Of a stretch of 64,000 nt of DNA, positions 1 through 59,961 are shown piece by piece; position 1 is the stretch's first letter; the number at the start of each line of letters is the position of its first letter. Location: positions 1,302,001 to 1,366,000 of the forward strand of contig JAWMAR010000427.1 of NCBI GenBank assembly GCA_036785375.1, read 5' to 3'. Below the pieces are notes generated by a model. That model saw nothing but the letters and a program-made list of their open reading frames with translations. It did no database searches and was not told where the DNA came from. Source of the stretch: Leucoraja ocellata. Its lineage: Eukaryota. Made by a program: the position numbers and the translations under genes.

Positions 1-1571
1 TACTAAAATGTCCTCATTTTGTAGCAATTGGCTTGCACTTAGAGGATAAATTAGTGAATAATGAAGGACATTCAACAGATGCAGCAGAAAAACCACACAA
101 TACTGGTGGCTTTGACAATACAAGATCAGGCATAGTTCCTTCATACATTATTTGAAGTGATCTGTGCAGTTCCTGAAAATACTGACCTAGAATTATATCG
201 CTACACAATTTTTTCAAAATACCAAGACACACAGATTTATAGCTAGTTTTGTTCAGTATACAAGATCCAATAACCAGTCTACAATACAAGATCCAATAAT
301 TTGAGTATTGAGAGTTGTCAGAGTCATCAAGATTTCTCTATTTGAGGGAATTATAGTTAGATTTAGTCGAGACACAATTTGTTCAGATAAAACTTTCTGA
401 ACTGCCAGAATCAAGTAGTACATTAATTGTATGGCCATTGATGGATACTGTTGTAGCTGCATGAGACAAGCTCTGAGGAAATGCAGCTGTAATTGTATAT
501 AAAGAAGGCGTATACATGGCAGCAGTCCCAATTTTAGTAGTTGCTTTGGACTTGCATACTTTAGAATAATGTCCCTTCTTGCCACAACTATTACAAGTTG
601 CCTCTCAAGCAGAGTATCTCTCTCTCTTATGAATATTACTACTGCAAAAGTAACACTTCTTTTTTGAATAATTATATGCTGCAGCAAGGGCACCTTTATC
701 AGTAGAAATTGTTTCAGCTTGCTGCATATTAGTACTTGGGTGAAATTATTTTGTAGTAGTTGCATCAGAATACACATTAGATGAGCCATAAGCATTTGAA
801 TTTTTCTGAGCCAAGTTTAATGAGTAAGCTTGATTGTAAGCTGACTGTAAATCCAAGGTTTTGTTTTCTAATAGTCTCTGTCGTATTAAAGACGATGCCA
901 AACCATTGATCAAAGAGTCTCAAATAAGTTCCTGTCGATATTGATCAGCCGTAACTGCTTTGAAGGCAAAGACTTTACTAAGTCTTTGAAGTTCTCGTAA
1001 AAATTCATCGTGACTCACCAGGTTTTTGTTTCCGAGTAGCAAGGAGGTGTCGAGCGAATATCACGTTGGGTGTCTTAACAAAGAGTCTGCTTAGTACATT
1101 AGTAGCAGAATCATAAGTTGTACATTCCTGTATGTAATCATATACATCAGAAGAGAATGAGCTTATTAATGTCTTGAGTCTGTCTGGTGTATCATTGCCA
1201 CACCCATCAAAGAAGTTATTTAGTATATGAAGCCCGTGCTTCCAATCCTTTGCAGCAGCAGGTGAGTTTGGATCCAGATCCAAGCATTATGGTTTCAATA
1301 GTTTCTCCATCCCGATGTCGGACTGCTTGACTTCTAAGATTGGGTTGCTTAAATTGTTGTGAGGAAAATGAAACTTTACACTACTTGTAATTTATTTAAC
1401 TTTATTTAAGCTTTAAGCAACTCATTTCTATGATACATAAACTCAAAAACATCTGGTAAACATGGCTGATTCCGCAGGCCTTTCCCGCCTGCACATGCGC
1501 ACATGCGCCCACTTCAGTATCATTCCCCACTTTCATTAAAATAGAAGCAAAGAATTTGTTTAGACCCAACA
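1..1571 (-). mobile_element. Decayed Ty3/Gypsy LTR retrotransposon, 5' part (LTR-gag-protease), continuing off the window's left edge
   Basis: Minus strand: gag-like start at ATG ~1309 (MEKLLKP*CLDLDPNSPAAAKDWKH...RLFVKTPNVIFARHLLATRKQKPGES), zinc knuckle CNSCGKKGHYSKVC (~556-600), aspartic protease INGHTINVLLDSGSSESFI (~385-442); stops and frameshifts present. Confidence 0.9.
1355..1571 (-). repeat. 5' LTR of the Gypsy element (217 bp)
   Basis: TGTTG...CAACA inverted termini at 1355-1359 and 1567-1571; AATAAA on minus strand (~1401-1406); lies just upstream of the gag ATG. Confidence 0.8.
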
Positions 1572-27596: not shown

Positions 27597-28729
27597 CAAA
27601 GATCTTATAGTGAAGCAAGATGGATTACTCTCACGCAAAAGTGAGGTACGCCCATGGGCGGATTCATGGGTGATTATAGGACACATTTTAGCAACCTGAC
27701 TCCGCCATCTTGCTCCGCTTTCTTGCTCCCGCCTTCTTGCTTCCGGCCAAAGATTGGATCCGCAGCGAGGAGAAGGAGTGCGGGGCCCGGGGCAGCGGGG
27801 AGAGAGAGTGCGGGGCAGCGGGGAGAGAGAGTGCGGGGCAGCGGGGAGAGGGAATGCGGGGTCCGGGGCAGCGGGGAGAGAGAGTGCGGGGTCCGGGGCA
27901 GCGGGGAGAGAGAGTGCGGGGCAGCGGGGAGAGAGAGTGCGGGGCAGCGGGGAGAGGGAATGCGGGGTCCGGGGCAGCGGGGAGAGAGAGTGCGGGGTCC
28001 GGGGCAGCGGGGAGAGAGAGTGCGGGGCAGCGGGGAGAGAGAGTGCGGGGCAGCGGGGAGAGAGAGTGCGGGGCAGCGGGGAGAGGGAGTGCGGGGCCCG
28101 GGGCAGCGGGGGAGAAGGAGTGCGGGGCCCGGGGCAGCGGGGAGAGAGAGTGCCCCAAGACAATGTTTCTTATTTACAATGTTTCTTATTTAATGTCCCT
28201 TGTCTAGTCTGAAATAAAGTTCATTATTGGATTAGAAGAAATATAATTGTGTGTGTTATATACATTTATATAATTTTCATGTATGTGTGTTTATAAACAT
28301 TTTATTCTTTAACAAGAATCAACAGAATTATGAACTAACAGAATTATGAATCTAACCGTATATCACGCACAAAAAGTCCCCCCCTGTCAATCACCCTGCG
28401 AGTCGGGTCGGTTCCGGTTACTACAAAATCAACTCAAACACTGCTTGTGAGCCATTTAAAAAGAAATGATTTAAAAAACATTAGAAAAGACAATTACCAG
28501 AATCAAATTTTATTCTTGACAAGAAGTTTGAACTGACAGATTTATGAATCTAACCCACACAAACTGTTGCCCCGCAACATTGATTACAGTGCGAGTCGGG
28601 TCGGGTTAGGTAGGCTCAGGTTGCTAAAATGGGCGTGGAAAATGCCCATGATCCCCTCCATAGCGTACTACACGTCAGTCCATTGCATTTAGCAGGAGTA
28701 GCCTATCTTGCTTCGCTATAAGATCTTTG
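27597..28729. mobile_element. Non-autonomous P-element-like (alternatively hAT) DNA transposon
   Basis: 8-bp TSD GTGTCAAC (27589-27596, 28730-28737); ~34-bp imperfect TIR CAAAGATCTTATAGYGAAGCAAGAT... Confidence 0.75.
27770..28153 (+). repeat. G-rich minisatellite (23-bp unit GCGGGGCAGCGGGGAGAGAGAGT, with 30-bp variants)
   Basis: About 14 tandem units; explains the overlapping low-complexity ORFs. Confidence 0.95.
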
Positions 28730-50780: not shown

Positions 50781-51236
50781 TTATGAAGAAAGACTGGATA
50801 GACTTGGTTTATACTCTCTAGAATTTAGGAGATTGAGAGGGGATCTTATAGAAACTTACAAAATTCTTAAGGGGTTGGACAGGCTAGATGCAGGAAGATT
50901 GTTCCCGATGTTAGGGAAGTCCAGGACAAGGGGTCACAGCTTAAGGATAAGGGGGAAATCCTTTAAAACCGAGATGAGACGAACTTTTTTCACACACAGA
51001 GTGGTGAATCTCTGGAACTCTCTGCCACAGAGGGTAGTTGAGGCCAGTTCATTGGCTATATTTAAGAGGGAGTTAGATGTGGACCTTGTGGCTAAGGACA
51101 TCAGGGGGTATGGAGAGAAGGCAGGTACGGGATACTGAGTTGGATGATCAGCCATGATCATATTGAATGGCGGTGCAGGCTCGAAGGGCCGAATGGCCTA
51201 CTCCTGCGCCTAATTTCTATGTTTCTATGTTTCTAT
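50781..51236 (+). mobile_element. Young CR1 (HER1-type) LINE 3' end
   Basis: YEERLDRLGLYSLEFRRLRGDLIETYKILKGLDRLDAGRLFP...WNSLP; (gtttctat)n tail. Confidence 0.95.
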
Positions 51237-51419
51237 TTAAAGTCAACGCTGGTCACATCACAATTCCATCTGATATTGGGTTGCACACACTAAACTAGGT
51301 TTATTCTGCATATACATAATCAAGTGAAGAAAGTAACATATGGTGAAAGTTGATGGTGTGCTTATATTTAACCCTTCCAGTCCTGGAGAGAAAATGAAGT
51401 GTTCTTGGCAGTACCCTGA

Positions 51420-51680
51420 GACTGAGGATGACTTGCCAATGTGGGAACCACAGCCTCTGCCCCATGTGAGGCAGGAGGTGACTGATTGGAGGGGGAGGTT
51501 ACATGGCAGATGGTCTGCTCCTTCTGTCACTAATGCTCTAAGATACTGTTGTGCACAAGTCACAGAAAACGCATATGCAGGGCCTCTGTGTGCTCCCAGC
51601 ATCAACTTGAGATTCTCAAAACCATCCCGAATCCTCCTTCTCCACTTGAGGTGCGATGAGCCAGAGATTTCCAAGAGTAA
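51420..51680 (-). mobile_element. RTE LINE 3' end, decayed
   Basis: HLKWRRRIRDGFENL...CLTWGRGCGSHIG (degenerate terminal zinc finger). Confidence 0.7.
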
Positions 51681-51866
51681 AGGAGAATATTGCATTCAAG
51701 TTACAACTTGATAAAATTACAGCACAGGTTCATGCACATTAAATTATGGAAACAGCACGTTATTGATGGATTAAGGCAGTGCATGACCCAGAGCTCATCA
51801 GTTATGGAGACATAAAAGATATACAGCATGGAAGCAGACCTTCTAGCCCAACTCGTGCAATCTGAC

Positions 51867-52167
51867 CAATATGATCATGGCTGATCATCCAACTCAGTAT
51901 CCTGTACCTGCCTTCTCTCCATACCCCCTGATCCCTTTAGCCACAAGTGCCACATCTAACTCCCTCTTAAATATAGCCAATGAACTGGCCTCAACTATCT
52001 TCTGTGGCAGAGAATTCCAGAGATTCACCACTCTCTGTGTGAAAAATGCTTTTCTCATCTCTGTCCCAAAGGATTTCCCCTTTATCCTTAAACTGTGACC
52101 CCTTGTCCTGGACTTCCCCAACATCGGGAACAATCTTCCTGCATCTAGGCTGTCCGACCCCTTAAGA
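51867..52167 (-). mobile_element. Young CR1 LINE 3' fragment
   Basis: ORF 51894-52133 nearly identical to the C-terminal part of ORF 50833-51138. Confidence 0.93.
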
Positions 52168-53300
52168 CATAGAAGAGAATGAGAAACTGCCCAACTACTG
52201 ATCCCTGGGATGTTAGTCTAATAAATGACATCCATCATCACTCCCTGTTTAAAATAGTTTATATCCTTGCTTCTGTAGTTTTAGTGTGTAAATATATATT
52301 ATCTGGCATTTTGTCAATTATCTTTTGTACATGAAGCATAAAATGTACAAATCAGATTGGATCATCAAAGAACTCTCTGAACACGATTTATTTTCAATAA
52401 ATCTTTGCTGACATCAATTTACTCTTTTTCAGAGCTAATTAGTTTGCCTCCAGATCAATGTAGTTCACAGAGTTTCCCAGCACGATGGGGAATTTTCCAG
52501 CAACATTTTTAATCTTCCAGTACTCTGGCCCAGTTCCAAACCTGGCAGAAGATGAGAAGTTTTATACTCAGACCTCTGCAATTTCCACCTTCACTTCTAA
52601 CGGTAATCCAATGTGCAAGCCATCCAGGTTACCTTAAGTATTGTCAATCTTTGAAGTATATCTTAGCTTCATTACTTATTTACTCTTGTACTCTGTGAAA
52701 GACTATAGCTGCATTTTGTTTTTAGCAAAGCCAAGTGGAAATAGACCAGACTTCAGTTCACAAGAGACGTGTTTTCGTGAGGTTTGAAAGTTTTCTATCC
52801 CCAGTGATAAACAGCTGAAAAGTAAGACTGTGCTCATAGTTCCTGACCACTGCTTCTTCTGCTCCTTATTGACTCAGGCACATTTACTTGTTGAATTCAT
52901 GACTATTCCAATTGCACACTAGATGGGTGTTTGTTTTGGCTCTTTGGAATCGGTTAAACTATGAGAAGTTATTGTCTTAAAAAAATGCCAGTTGTGACTG
53001 TGAGAACATCCATTGCATGGTTTTTGCAATATTTTAATGAGCATATCTAGACTCGGAATACATCACTCAAAGGGGATAAATGCAGAGGGCGAATGTAGCA
53101 ATCAAAGGCCCGTTTCTCTGCCTTTGGTCTTCCGAGTGAAGAAGGAATTCGGCATTGTAGTTGTTTCCGCAATCTCAGACTTTGGCAAACCTCACAGACC
53201 TCAAAGTGTTTTCAGCGTAGGTACTGCTGTACTGTAGGTCATGCTGCTGTCAACTTGCACACTACAAGGTTCTAAAAGCAGGACGTTAACAGCTGCCTTA

Positions 53301-54528
53301 AGGGGTTGTCCCACTGCGGAGACCTAATCTGCGAATTTAGACAAGTTTGCCCTTGACTCAAACTCGCAGCATGATCGACACACGAGGTCCTAGTAGGTCC
53401 TATGAGGTCACTGGAACTCTCCTTCATGCTTAAGGGAAGTTCCCGAATACTCGTGGCCTCAGCTAGGTCGCGGAAAATTTTTGAGCATGTTGAAATATTT
53501 TCTGCGAGTAAAATTTGGTCGGGATGGTTCTTTTTGACTCGTAGTGCAGTGGAGTGGGGTCGCTATTTATTTACAGGCAGTCTAGGGCAGCCGTAGGCAA
53601 TCTCCTTCGCTGACCGGGCATCTTGATTGGCTCATTGGAGTTTTCAGGAACAGGACACACCGTTAGTTGGTAGGTTAAATGCCCACCAAACTTTATTGAA
53701 CGTTGTCTGACTTCTTAAATGTGTCTCCACTCCTCCCACCCTTCTCTCCCCTTCTCTCCCCTTCTCTCCCCTTCTCTCCCCTTCTCTCCCCTTCTCTCTC
53801 CCCCTCTCCGCCTTCTCTCCCCTTCTCTCCCCCCCCTCCGTGCTCTCTAAAGGACTTACCGTACACTGTGGCAGCCGTTTACCTTCCTCATCATCGCGGG
53901 TGTGAATTTCAGACAGTGCTCCCCCGCTTTCCCTGGCCCCCGCCTGTGCGATGTGTTTAGAAGATTGAGGGGGGATCTTATAGAAACTTACAAAATTCTT
54001 AAGGGGTTGGACAGGCTAGATGCAGGAAGATTGTTCCCCATGTTGGGGAAGTCCAGAACAAGGGGTCACAGTTTAGGGATAAAGGGGAAATCTTTTAGGA
54101 CCGAGATGAGAAAAACATTTTTCACACAGAGAGTGGTGAATCTCTGGAACTCTCTGCCACAGAAGGTAGTTGAGGCCAGTTCATTGGCTATATTTAAGGG
54201 GGAGTTAGATGTGGCCATGGTGGCTAAAGGAATCAGAGGGTATGGAGAGAAGGCAGGTACAGGATACTGAGTTGGATGATCAGCCATGATCATATTGAAT
54301 GGCGGTGCAGGCTCAAAGGGCCAAATGGCCTACACCTGCACCTATTTTCAATGTTTCTATGTTTCTATGTTTGTGTGTGTGTGTGCGCGCGGTCGGTCGA
54401 TCCAGCTCGCGGTTTCATCGCTGACGGTCGATCCAGCTTGAGGTTTTTCAGGCGAGTGCCCTCGAGCTTGATGGCCGAAGGCACTCTTCTTAACTCGAGG
54501 ATTAGGTCGCCCCAGTGGGACAGCCCCG
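53301..54528. mobile_element. PIF/Harbinger-type MITE with nested CR1
   Basis: TTA TSD (53298-53300, 54529-54531); TIR aggggttgtcccactg / cagtgggacagcccc; internal (ccttctctcc)n-type repeats. Confidence 0.9.
53956..54370 (+). mobile_element. Young CR1 LINE 3' end inserted in the MITE's (TG)n tract
   Basis: FRRLRGDLIETYKILKG...GEKAGTGY; (gtttctat)n tail. Confidence 0.95.
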
Positions 54529-58679: not shown

Positions 58680-59961
58680 GTTCTTTCTATGCATTCCATC
58701 CTTTCTGGCTCATCAGTCGGGTATTATGCAAAATACAACTAAACATCGTCAGCAGAATCTTAAGTAACCATTTCCGGACCTGGGACTAACGAACCGAACA
58801 ATGAACATATACAGCGGCTCACAGGCAGTCCACGAAGAAACTATATCGGGTCCACATCAGGAAATGGCAAATATTGTTCTAGGAACAACATCGCTACTAT
58901 ACGACGAACATAACTCTGTTCTGAAATTCCTGGCTAGCCTCCACTATGATGAGGGGCTCAGTTTAGTGCCACAAACTGCGCCAGAAGTGCCTTTTCAGTA
59001 TTCTGGGGCAAGGATCAGAGCGTCATTCTGTCAGGTCTCACCCCCTGGTGACTAAACTCATGAGGGGAATTTTTAATATTATCCCCAAGGACTAGTATTC
59101 CCTTATATGGTATATATAGTATAGTCCAACATTACTGAGGAATTGGTCACCAGCTACAGCTCTGTCCCTGCAGACTTGCACATGACATGGTCATGCTTAT
59201 AGCATTGGTCTCAACACACAGAATTCAGTCTTTACATAAATAAAGGCTGGATAGTAACACCTCTTCTATGAGTAAAATAACTTTTTACATCCACAAATGA
59301 GTTCAACAGAACAGACCGGGATCATCAGGCCTCATATAGAGTTCAGTGCATACCCAATAGATGATTGCCTATGCATTATGAGACATAGACATAGAGAACT
59401 CTAAACAGCACAGAGGCAATGAGATGTGACATTGCAGAATCAAAATTAAATCTGTATCATGATTACCCCATAAGACAGGGGCTATAATTGTTGTTAATAG
59501 TTCATCATGGAATTTCAATGTCGGATTGATGTTTGAATACGTTAACACTATTTCCTCCCTTAAGTCAATTAAGGCAGTTGTGAGGCATGGACTCGTTTCC
59601 ACGGCATGAAATCACAGAGCTTTGAAATCTTCACGTAGTCACTCACGTGACTCCGAAGTAAAATAGTAAGATTAAACAAGAACTTACCAAGTTTGAAGTT
59701 TGATCGTTATTTTATGAGGAGTAACGTTGAGGGATTACGTGCCCTCCGCTCCCACCCTCGATCATAAAGTTCAACTGGTATCCTTTTTTCTCTAATCTTA
59801 CCATGTTCAGGTCATTGCTGTTATCTGTGATTTCACACCGCTGCTTTGAAGAATGACACGCATGCGTCCTGGCGGGTTCTTCACGTAATCCCTCAACGTT
59901 ACTCCTCATAAAATAACGATCAAACTTCAAACTTGGTAAGTTCTCGTTTAATCTTACTATT
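58680..59961 (+). mobile_element. DIRS tyrosine-recombinase retrotransposon, decayed 3' part
   Basis: Frameshifted YR: AAHRQSTKKLYRVHIRKWQ...VLKFLASLHYDEGLS...CARSA...SHPLVTKLMRGIFN; MVMLIALVSTHRIQSLH (box I Arg); QNRPG...IEFSAYP...LC; terminal inverted repeat structure. Confidence 0.85.
59662..59961. repeat. 80-bp inverted repeat (DIRS internal complementary region versus right terminus)
   Basis: 59662-59741 is the reverse complement of 59882-59961 with one mismatch. Confidence 0.92.

Follow-up and report, generated by a model that had tools for sequence, protein, structure and literature searches.

The window analyzed here is a 64,000-nucleotide stretch of the Leucoraja ocellata genome. 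At its left edge, on the minus strand, lies a Ty3/Gypsy retrotransposon, recognized by its paired TG...CA long terminal repeats (LTRs), a target-site duplication, a polypurine tract, and a protease-reverse transcriptase (RT)-RNase H-integrase domain order. Between the two LTRs are found gag, protease, RT, RNase H, and integrase, in the order expected for Ty3/Gypsy elements; the RT, RNase H, integrase, polypurine tract, and 3′ LTR run past the window edge. The second (3′) LTR is located 4.8 kb downstream, outside the window, with a purine tract before it (G000:C427:1298697-1298526), and GATAC flanks both ends of the element. The 5′ and 3′ LTRs differ by nine mismatches over 162 aligned positions and by one 10-nt indel.

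The coding region of this copy is interrupted by stops, frameshifts, and an insertion in the RT, and the copy is broken and probably inactive. Its gag ATG is at position 1310, followed by zinc knuckles at about 655-554, a protease motif at about 415-398, and RT from about 37. Pfam analysis of an uninterrupted member of the same family (L133) places the protease at residues 321-408, RT at 517-662, RNase H at 727-849, and integrase at 877-1036. The features within the window are as follows.

1517..1521, minus strand: left copy of the 5-bp target-site duplication GATAC; the same 5-mer follows the 3′ LTR (L032, L033)
1355..1516, minus strand: 5′ LTR, 162 nt, with TG...CA ends; its partner lies outside the window
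1412..1425, minus strand: arm in the LTR complementary to the post-LTR site, a candidate self-primer with a predicted 3′ end at 1412
1401..1406, minus strand: AATAAA poly(A) signal, read from the sequence; transcripts of the family are tailed 13-16 nt downstream
1385..1388, minus strand: poly(A) addition site and R/U5 border, placed by homology to L133:717-720
1354, minus strand: spacer of one base, A, separating the LTR end from the paired site; A in all 12 hand-anchored families, a partly circular count as this base was used for anchoring
1340..1353, minus strand: position of a primer-binding site, without TGG and complementary to the arm, from sequence and pairing
1..1310, minus strand: decayed gag-protease and the start of RT, from three-frame translation and from Pfam on the uninterrupted family member

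Elsewhere the window holds a 23/30-nt tandem array (27739-28148), three repeats of about 300 nt in direct and inverted orientation (50824-54367), and an 80-nt inverted repeat of 99% identity with a 140-nt spacer (59662-59961).

The Post-LTR Site and Its Complement

On the element strand the LTR ends ...CAACA at 1355 and is followed by a single A at 1354 and by TTTAAGCAAC at 1353-1344. The exact 10-nt complement, GTTGCTTAAA, lies at 1421-1412 inside the same LTR, upstream of AATAAA at 1406-1401. The site has no TGG of the type that starts a tRNA primer-binding site; the first TGG falls within the gag start codon, 46 nt past the LTR. Apart from the place of the first TGG, this was described in a first-pass annotation of the window and was borne out here. 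The LTR end itself is placed independently of the pairing motif, by the second LTR, by the GATAC duplication, and by the other 3′ and solo LTRs of the host family, which lose similarity immediately past ...CAACA.

An initiator-like TGAGTT had also been described at the complement, and this motif proved not to be conserved: A, not G, stands there in 50 of 58 anchored host-family loci, and the G belongs to a minority G-C variant at duplex position 12. The duplex is longer than first noted, with 12 of 14 positions paired in the window copy and 14 of 14 in young copies. An exact 10-mer complement was found in 8 of 20,000 shuffled LTRs; the folding energy of 1300-1424 is unremarkable (z −1.1, with 28 of 200 shuffles equally good).

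DNA searches for the host family in the 3.4-Gb genome returned 889 and 857 first-look candidates, with 40 scored from each. The host-family sample comprised 60 loci with 5′ ends, 58 of them anchorable, some being overlapping fetches or segmental duplicates. Among the 58 anchored loci, pairing is 10/10 in 43 and 13/13 in 39, and duplex position 12 is A-T in 49, G-C in five, and unpaired in four. The double change at this position is probably a single event, so the covariation there was given little weight by itself. One element (L013 and L041) carries the same arm change in both of its LTRs and has a site without a compensating change. Arm-site pairing was predicted with a probability of 0.92-0.93 for three assumed transcript starts, and the AATAAA of the host family is predicted to lie in a small hairpin adjoining the duplex.

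Three host-family copies examined over their full length each contain one frame of 1262 codons and have 5-bp duplications; the LTR pairs of L133 and L134 are 100% identical. Identical LTR pairs and the 1262-codon open frame indicate that the host family was recently mobile, without a tRNA site. The U3 region of the family (window 1516-1480; L001-L030) contains a variable count of GC-rich units with GCGCATGTGC, predicted to fold as long hairpins; the variable number of these units gives host-family LTRs a length of 162 to about 280 nt.

Beyond the host family, a gag alignment gave 40 metagenome loci and one locus from a genome bin (41 in all). Twelve families were compared: the host family, represented by L133, and 11 others, each represented by one copy chosen by eye with short anchors. 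RT-RNase H identity to L133 ranges from 50% to 74% among the six families that are comparable. The 12 sites are all different, and 134 of the 144 first-12 positions are Watson-Crick paired to the family's own LTR, so that the covariation asked of related families is present. Two or more Watson-Crick pair types occur at 11 of the first 13 duplex positions, only positions 1 and 3 being invariant. Mean pairing is 11.2 of 12 with the own LTR versus 8.3 of 12 with the LTRs of other families, cross-family values being as high as 11 of 12 between similar families. The observed sum of own-LTR pairing was reached by none of 200,000 permutations in which families were treated as unrelated. Pairing is not above its shuffles in L083 (162 of 2,000), and is weaker in L071, L095, and L098 (6-17 of 2,000 shuffles) than in the other families.

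Pairing begins at base +2 after the LTR in the 12 hand-anchored families and does not extend inward, as is required if the end of a primer defines the end of the DNA. TGG is absent within 0-8 nt after the LTR in 12 of 12. The complement lies 23-55 nt inside the LTR of each of the other families, and the duplex arm is 10-18 nt long; its last six bases are AATAAA or ATTAAA in seven of the 12 families. The corresponding hexamer in L071 and L095 is ACAAGA, which is not a poly(A) signal, and pairing and register are kept. A second LTR fixes the LTR end in three cases (the host family, the L080 family, and L098) and does so ambiguously in L074; the boundary in the remaining families was taken from the CA-A pattern.

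The same sites were sought in the 41 loci by a scan without hand anchors. Twenty-six loci were scorable, five being too short upstream and ten having no recognizable gag start. The scan found the same sites in 12 of the 26, with 10-12 of 12 positions paired and at most 5 of 200 shuffles as good. Among the 14 failures, three scored 9 of 12 and 11 scored 8 or less; these 11 comprise seven decayed copies of the L080 family, three loci apparently without an LTR, and L063, a distinct family without a match in the 118 nt upstream.

Several loci are unusual in structure. L071 and L095 form a sub-branch in which gag starts MDKAL, the LTRs are short (about 90 nt), and the site is of the TCTTG type; an A-C mismatch at duplex position 6, shared by the two, is possibly conserved. 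L074 and L115 have inverted duplications, directly upstream of gag, that include the LTR, and that of L074 also takes in the primer site. An integrase tail and a purine tract precede the pre-gag LTR in L081 and L095, which suggests either circular DNA forms or elements arranged in tandem with a common LTR.

Transcripts and the Poly(A) Site

Raw reads from four runs that carry the same species label were aligned to L133; most of them derive from other copies, being 90-95% alike. Sense depth in the single-cell runs X21 and X22 falls from about 95 and about 77, respectively, to about 2 and about 6 just past L133:720. Loose poly(A) ends were present, among the matches listed, in at least 52 reads of X21 (717-720) and at least 52 of X22 (715-720). 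The poly(A) site is 13-16 nt past AATAAA, and U5 is about 30 nt long. Tails at L133:715-720 stand 22-27 nt beyond the 3′ end of the arm (693), with about 25 nt of R between, a length that fits strand transfer after a cut at L133:693.

No pile of read starts was seen at the arm, and 3′-weighted libraries such as these would not show one. Seventeen X21 reads have a loose 5′ end before L133:618, with a mixed consensus (agreement 0.72) that is partly adapter-like; the loose end at L133:618 in X22 reads as genomic. The consensus at L133:618 partly resembles what we take to be a template-switch adapter. The X21 ends may mark RNA 5′ ends that lie some 70 nt upstream of the arm, in contrast to Tf1, or may be a template-switch artifact. 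At L133:817, 21 reads (X23 and X24) join the start of U3 almost directly to the pre-gag region, which suggests that some transcribed copies have lost the primer site and most of the LTR.

A Lineage Apart from the Host Sushi-Like and Mag-Type Elements

The element had been described as non-chromoviral, with CCHC zinc knuckles in a gag that looked Mag-like. The first two points agree with our analysis. No chromodomain is present in L133 or P0007, the RT branch lies apart from the sushi-like rows, and no chromodomain entry occurs among 120 relatives listed. The domain is present in the host control L167; the frame of sushi-like L169 is also without it, but is shorter and may be cut. Two zinc knuckles of the form CX2CX4HX4C are found in an uninterrupted copy, and the first knuckle of the window copy is without its last Cys.

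Placement near Mag was not upheld. The RT-RNase H region is 32% identical to that of the host Mag-type element (the only Mag-type family available), which lies on a separate branch, and 34-35% identical to those of host sushi-like elements. A 29-row tree resolves three well-supported branches, one each for the lineage, the sushi-like rows, and the Mag-type rows, with 32-35% identity between groups, and 23 lineage rows split from four sushi-like rows with support of 98/98 and 100/99 (in a tree without a true root). The element is therefore neither sushi nor a member of the host Mag-type family, a distant sister relation being possible in an unrooted tree.

The lineage resembles Mag (clades A, B, and C) in its CCHC gag knuckles, single gag-pol frame, lack of a chromodomain, and animal hosts. 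It differs from the host element L166, which we take to be Mag-type from its RT motifs and its TGG site, in having a self-complement and no TGG: the post-LTR site of L166 starts TGG (TGGCGACGAG) and has no self-complement. L166 (G000:C418:1787500-1795500) is a young element with identical LTRs.

The host's sushi-like element L167 encodes a chromodomain and a Tf2-type SH3 domain, both of which are absent from the present lineage, in contrast to Tf1/sushi elements. Ten nucleotides of its post-LTR site are complementary to a stretch of the L167 LTR lying 136 nt upstream, and recovery of this site indicates that the scan detects known sushi-type self-pairing. The loop is 23-57 nt in the present lineage versus 136 nt in this sushi-like element, and the spacer is one nucleotide rather than two. 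L167 (G000:C201:1545500-1553500) and L168 belong to a young, abundant sushi-like chromovirus family with a 1517-codon frame and LTRs that are 99.7% identical and end in TA instead of CA.

Named relatives with 53-66% identity over the aligned RT-RNase H part come from prawns, mantis shrimp, a copepod, a tunicate, a soft coral, and a whipworm. Queries with P0007 and alignment A1 found no relatives in viral contigs. The single match among prokaryote genomes (L132; JAAESD010000556.1), in a record titled as a bacterial genome bin, belongs to the lineage: it carries gag, an RT-RNase H stretch free of stops, and a site that self-pairs over 14 nt. It is probably stray animal DNA. A lineage-motif search of paper supplements and full texts gave no match to a clade name, and a protein-cluster comparison (Atlas) returned generic gag clusters only. 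Cigr-1 and MolGy are non-chromoviral Gypsy clades of tunicates, molluscs, and annelids, and their host range, compared by description, would fit this lineage; the accessible parts of the two sources state nothing about their primers (PMC6238403, PMC8556966).

Probable Self-Priming and Its Alternatives

The first-pass annotation proposed that a Mag-like element primes its reverse transcription without tRNA. The Mag-like placement is not supported; the lack of a tRNA-type site, the complementarity to the element's own LTR, which covaries across families, and the non-chromoviral character all stand. On the basis of sequence and comparative analysis, we consider it likely (a probability of about 0.8) that the window contains a decayed copy of a non-chromoviral Ty3/Gypsy lineage in which the post-LTR site pairs with an arm of the element's own LTR and the element thereby primes its own minus-strand DNA.

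The accessible parts of the literature describe several comparable systems. Fission-yeast Tf1 has been demonstrated to self-prime its reverse transcription, and the same has been inferred for the chromoviral relatives of Tf1 and for a single plant lineage of Copia (PMC7175516, PMC6317226, PMC10085805); self-priming is attributed to Tf1, Tf2, and Tj1 and to the Tf1/sushi chromoviruses (PMC7175516, PMC4600332, PMC10085805). The first 11 bases of Tf1 anneal to the primer site; the RNase H cut falls between bases 11 and 12 (PMC7175516). Like Tf1/sushi elements, the present lineage has no tRNA site, a post-LTR sequence that pairs with its own 5′ LTR, and the Gypsy domain order; compared with them, its duplex reaches up to 18 nt and the arm often ends in a poly(A) hexamer. 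The self-primer of Tf1 consists of the first bases of the transcript, whereas a 5′-terminal arm is only a candidate here. Self-priming has also been predicted for TAR (plant Ty1/copia) and Tcn1 from a 5′-LTR complement of at least 10 bp to a stretch 0-5 bp past the LTR (PMC6317226), and the present element has such a complement. TAR is a plant-specific Copia lineage and Tcn1 is chromoviral, while the relatives of this lineage are found in crustaceans, a tunicate, a soft coral, and a nematode.

If the Tf1 mechanism is a guide, the RNA would fold back so that the arm pairs with the post-LTR site, and RT/RNase H would cut after the ...TAAA of the arm. Extension of the new 3′-OH would then copy U5 and R, a stretch of 55-57 nt between the LTR end and the cut, and the last 25 nt or so of the strong-stop DNA would match R at the RNA 3′ end and allow strand transfer. 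If plus-strand synthesis later copies the primer as well, a step that the title of a Tf1 paper reportedly implies, the site would be rewritten from the arm in every cycle; this would explain the tight covariation. In none of the 11 families checked for the Tf1-type "pretzel", a structure of three duplexes around the site, did a flanking duplex exceed its shuffles, and the sushi-like positive control failed as well.

It is also conceivable, if improbable, that the duplex serves only to hide the poly(A) signal of the 5′ LTR and so blocks premature 3′-end formation, with another primer being used. The arm ends in a poly(A) hexamer in seven of 12 families, the AATAAA of the host family is predicted in a small hairpin beside the duplex, and the site is present only downstream of the 5′ LTR, so that the effect would be specific to that LTR. 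However, the AATAAA actually used in the host family is outside the duplex, and L071 and L095 retain pairing and register with a hexamer of another kind; pairing and register thus persist without overlap with a poly(A) signal. Masking does not need the fixed +2 register, and would leave the element without a primer site. Alongside self-priming, masking of the poly(A) signal may be a second role of the duplex.

Priming by an unusual host RNA (a half-tRNA, an internal tRNA fragment, or another small RNA), with the LTR arm as a by-product, appears very unlikely. Half-tRNA priming occurs in some Copia lineages, according to the accessible part of PMC6317226, and offers a precedent, and the tRNA sample was thin, with 30 loci yielding only Lys(ttt) and Cys(gca) genes and two doubtful calls; against this, the site changes family by family in step with the family's own LTR, and the needed 10-mer matches the sampled tRNAs over 4 nt at most (6 nt in the two doubtful calls).

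We give still less credence to uncut priming, in which the 3′ end of the genomic RNA, carrying the arm in its R region, would fold back onto the site and act as the primer. Both LTRs contain the arm, and its final ...AAA could pass for the start of a tail, but the observed tails lie some 25 nt beyond the arm, which argues against priming by the natural RNA 3′ end and largely refutes it, barring a minor untailed 3′ end at the arm. A chance inverted repeat in AT-rich sequence, the least credible explanation, would accord with the modest folding score and with the high pairing between similar families, but is refuted by the own-LTR permutation test, the 12-family covariation, and the blind scan, and is opposed by the rarity of the complement in shuffled LTRs and by the same position and register, with different letters, in unrelated families.

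The self-pairing is a real sequence feature and a variant of a known self-priming mechanism; the priming itself we infer from sequence comparison. A search of the full-text literature, with Repbase, GyDB, and most subscription journals outside its scope, found no description of self-priming in a non-chromoviral animal Gypsy clade, and earlier notice in those sources is possible. Self-priming of such a clade is not mentioned in the accessible parts of PMC6238403, PMC8556966, PMC3670739, PMC2774666, PMC2582038, PMC3601003, PMC5443660, and PMC10680173. A wider picture, which we put forward tentatively and lean somewhat against, is that a large, animal-wide Gypsy clade evolved self-priming independently of Tf1/sushi; the poly(A) signal would be the 3′ end of the primer in most families, the duplex would both make the primer and hide the 5′-LTR signal, and the arm would perhaps be an internal piece excised from the RNA instead of its first bases.

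PMC3601003 raises the question of which mode of priming, tRNA or hairpin, is the older in LTR elements. Self-priming in this lineage, if true, would bear on that question: a separate and widespread animal lineage with a short loop would mean that priming without tRNA is common, with probably more than one origin. It would also provide a compact RNA in which to study the cleavage of an RNA duplex by RNase H, and annotation tools that require a tRNA site would be expected to under-call these elements.
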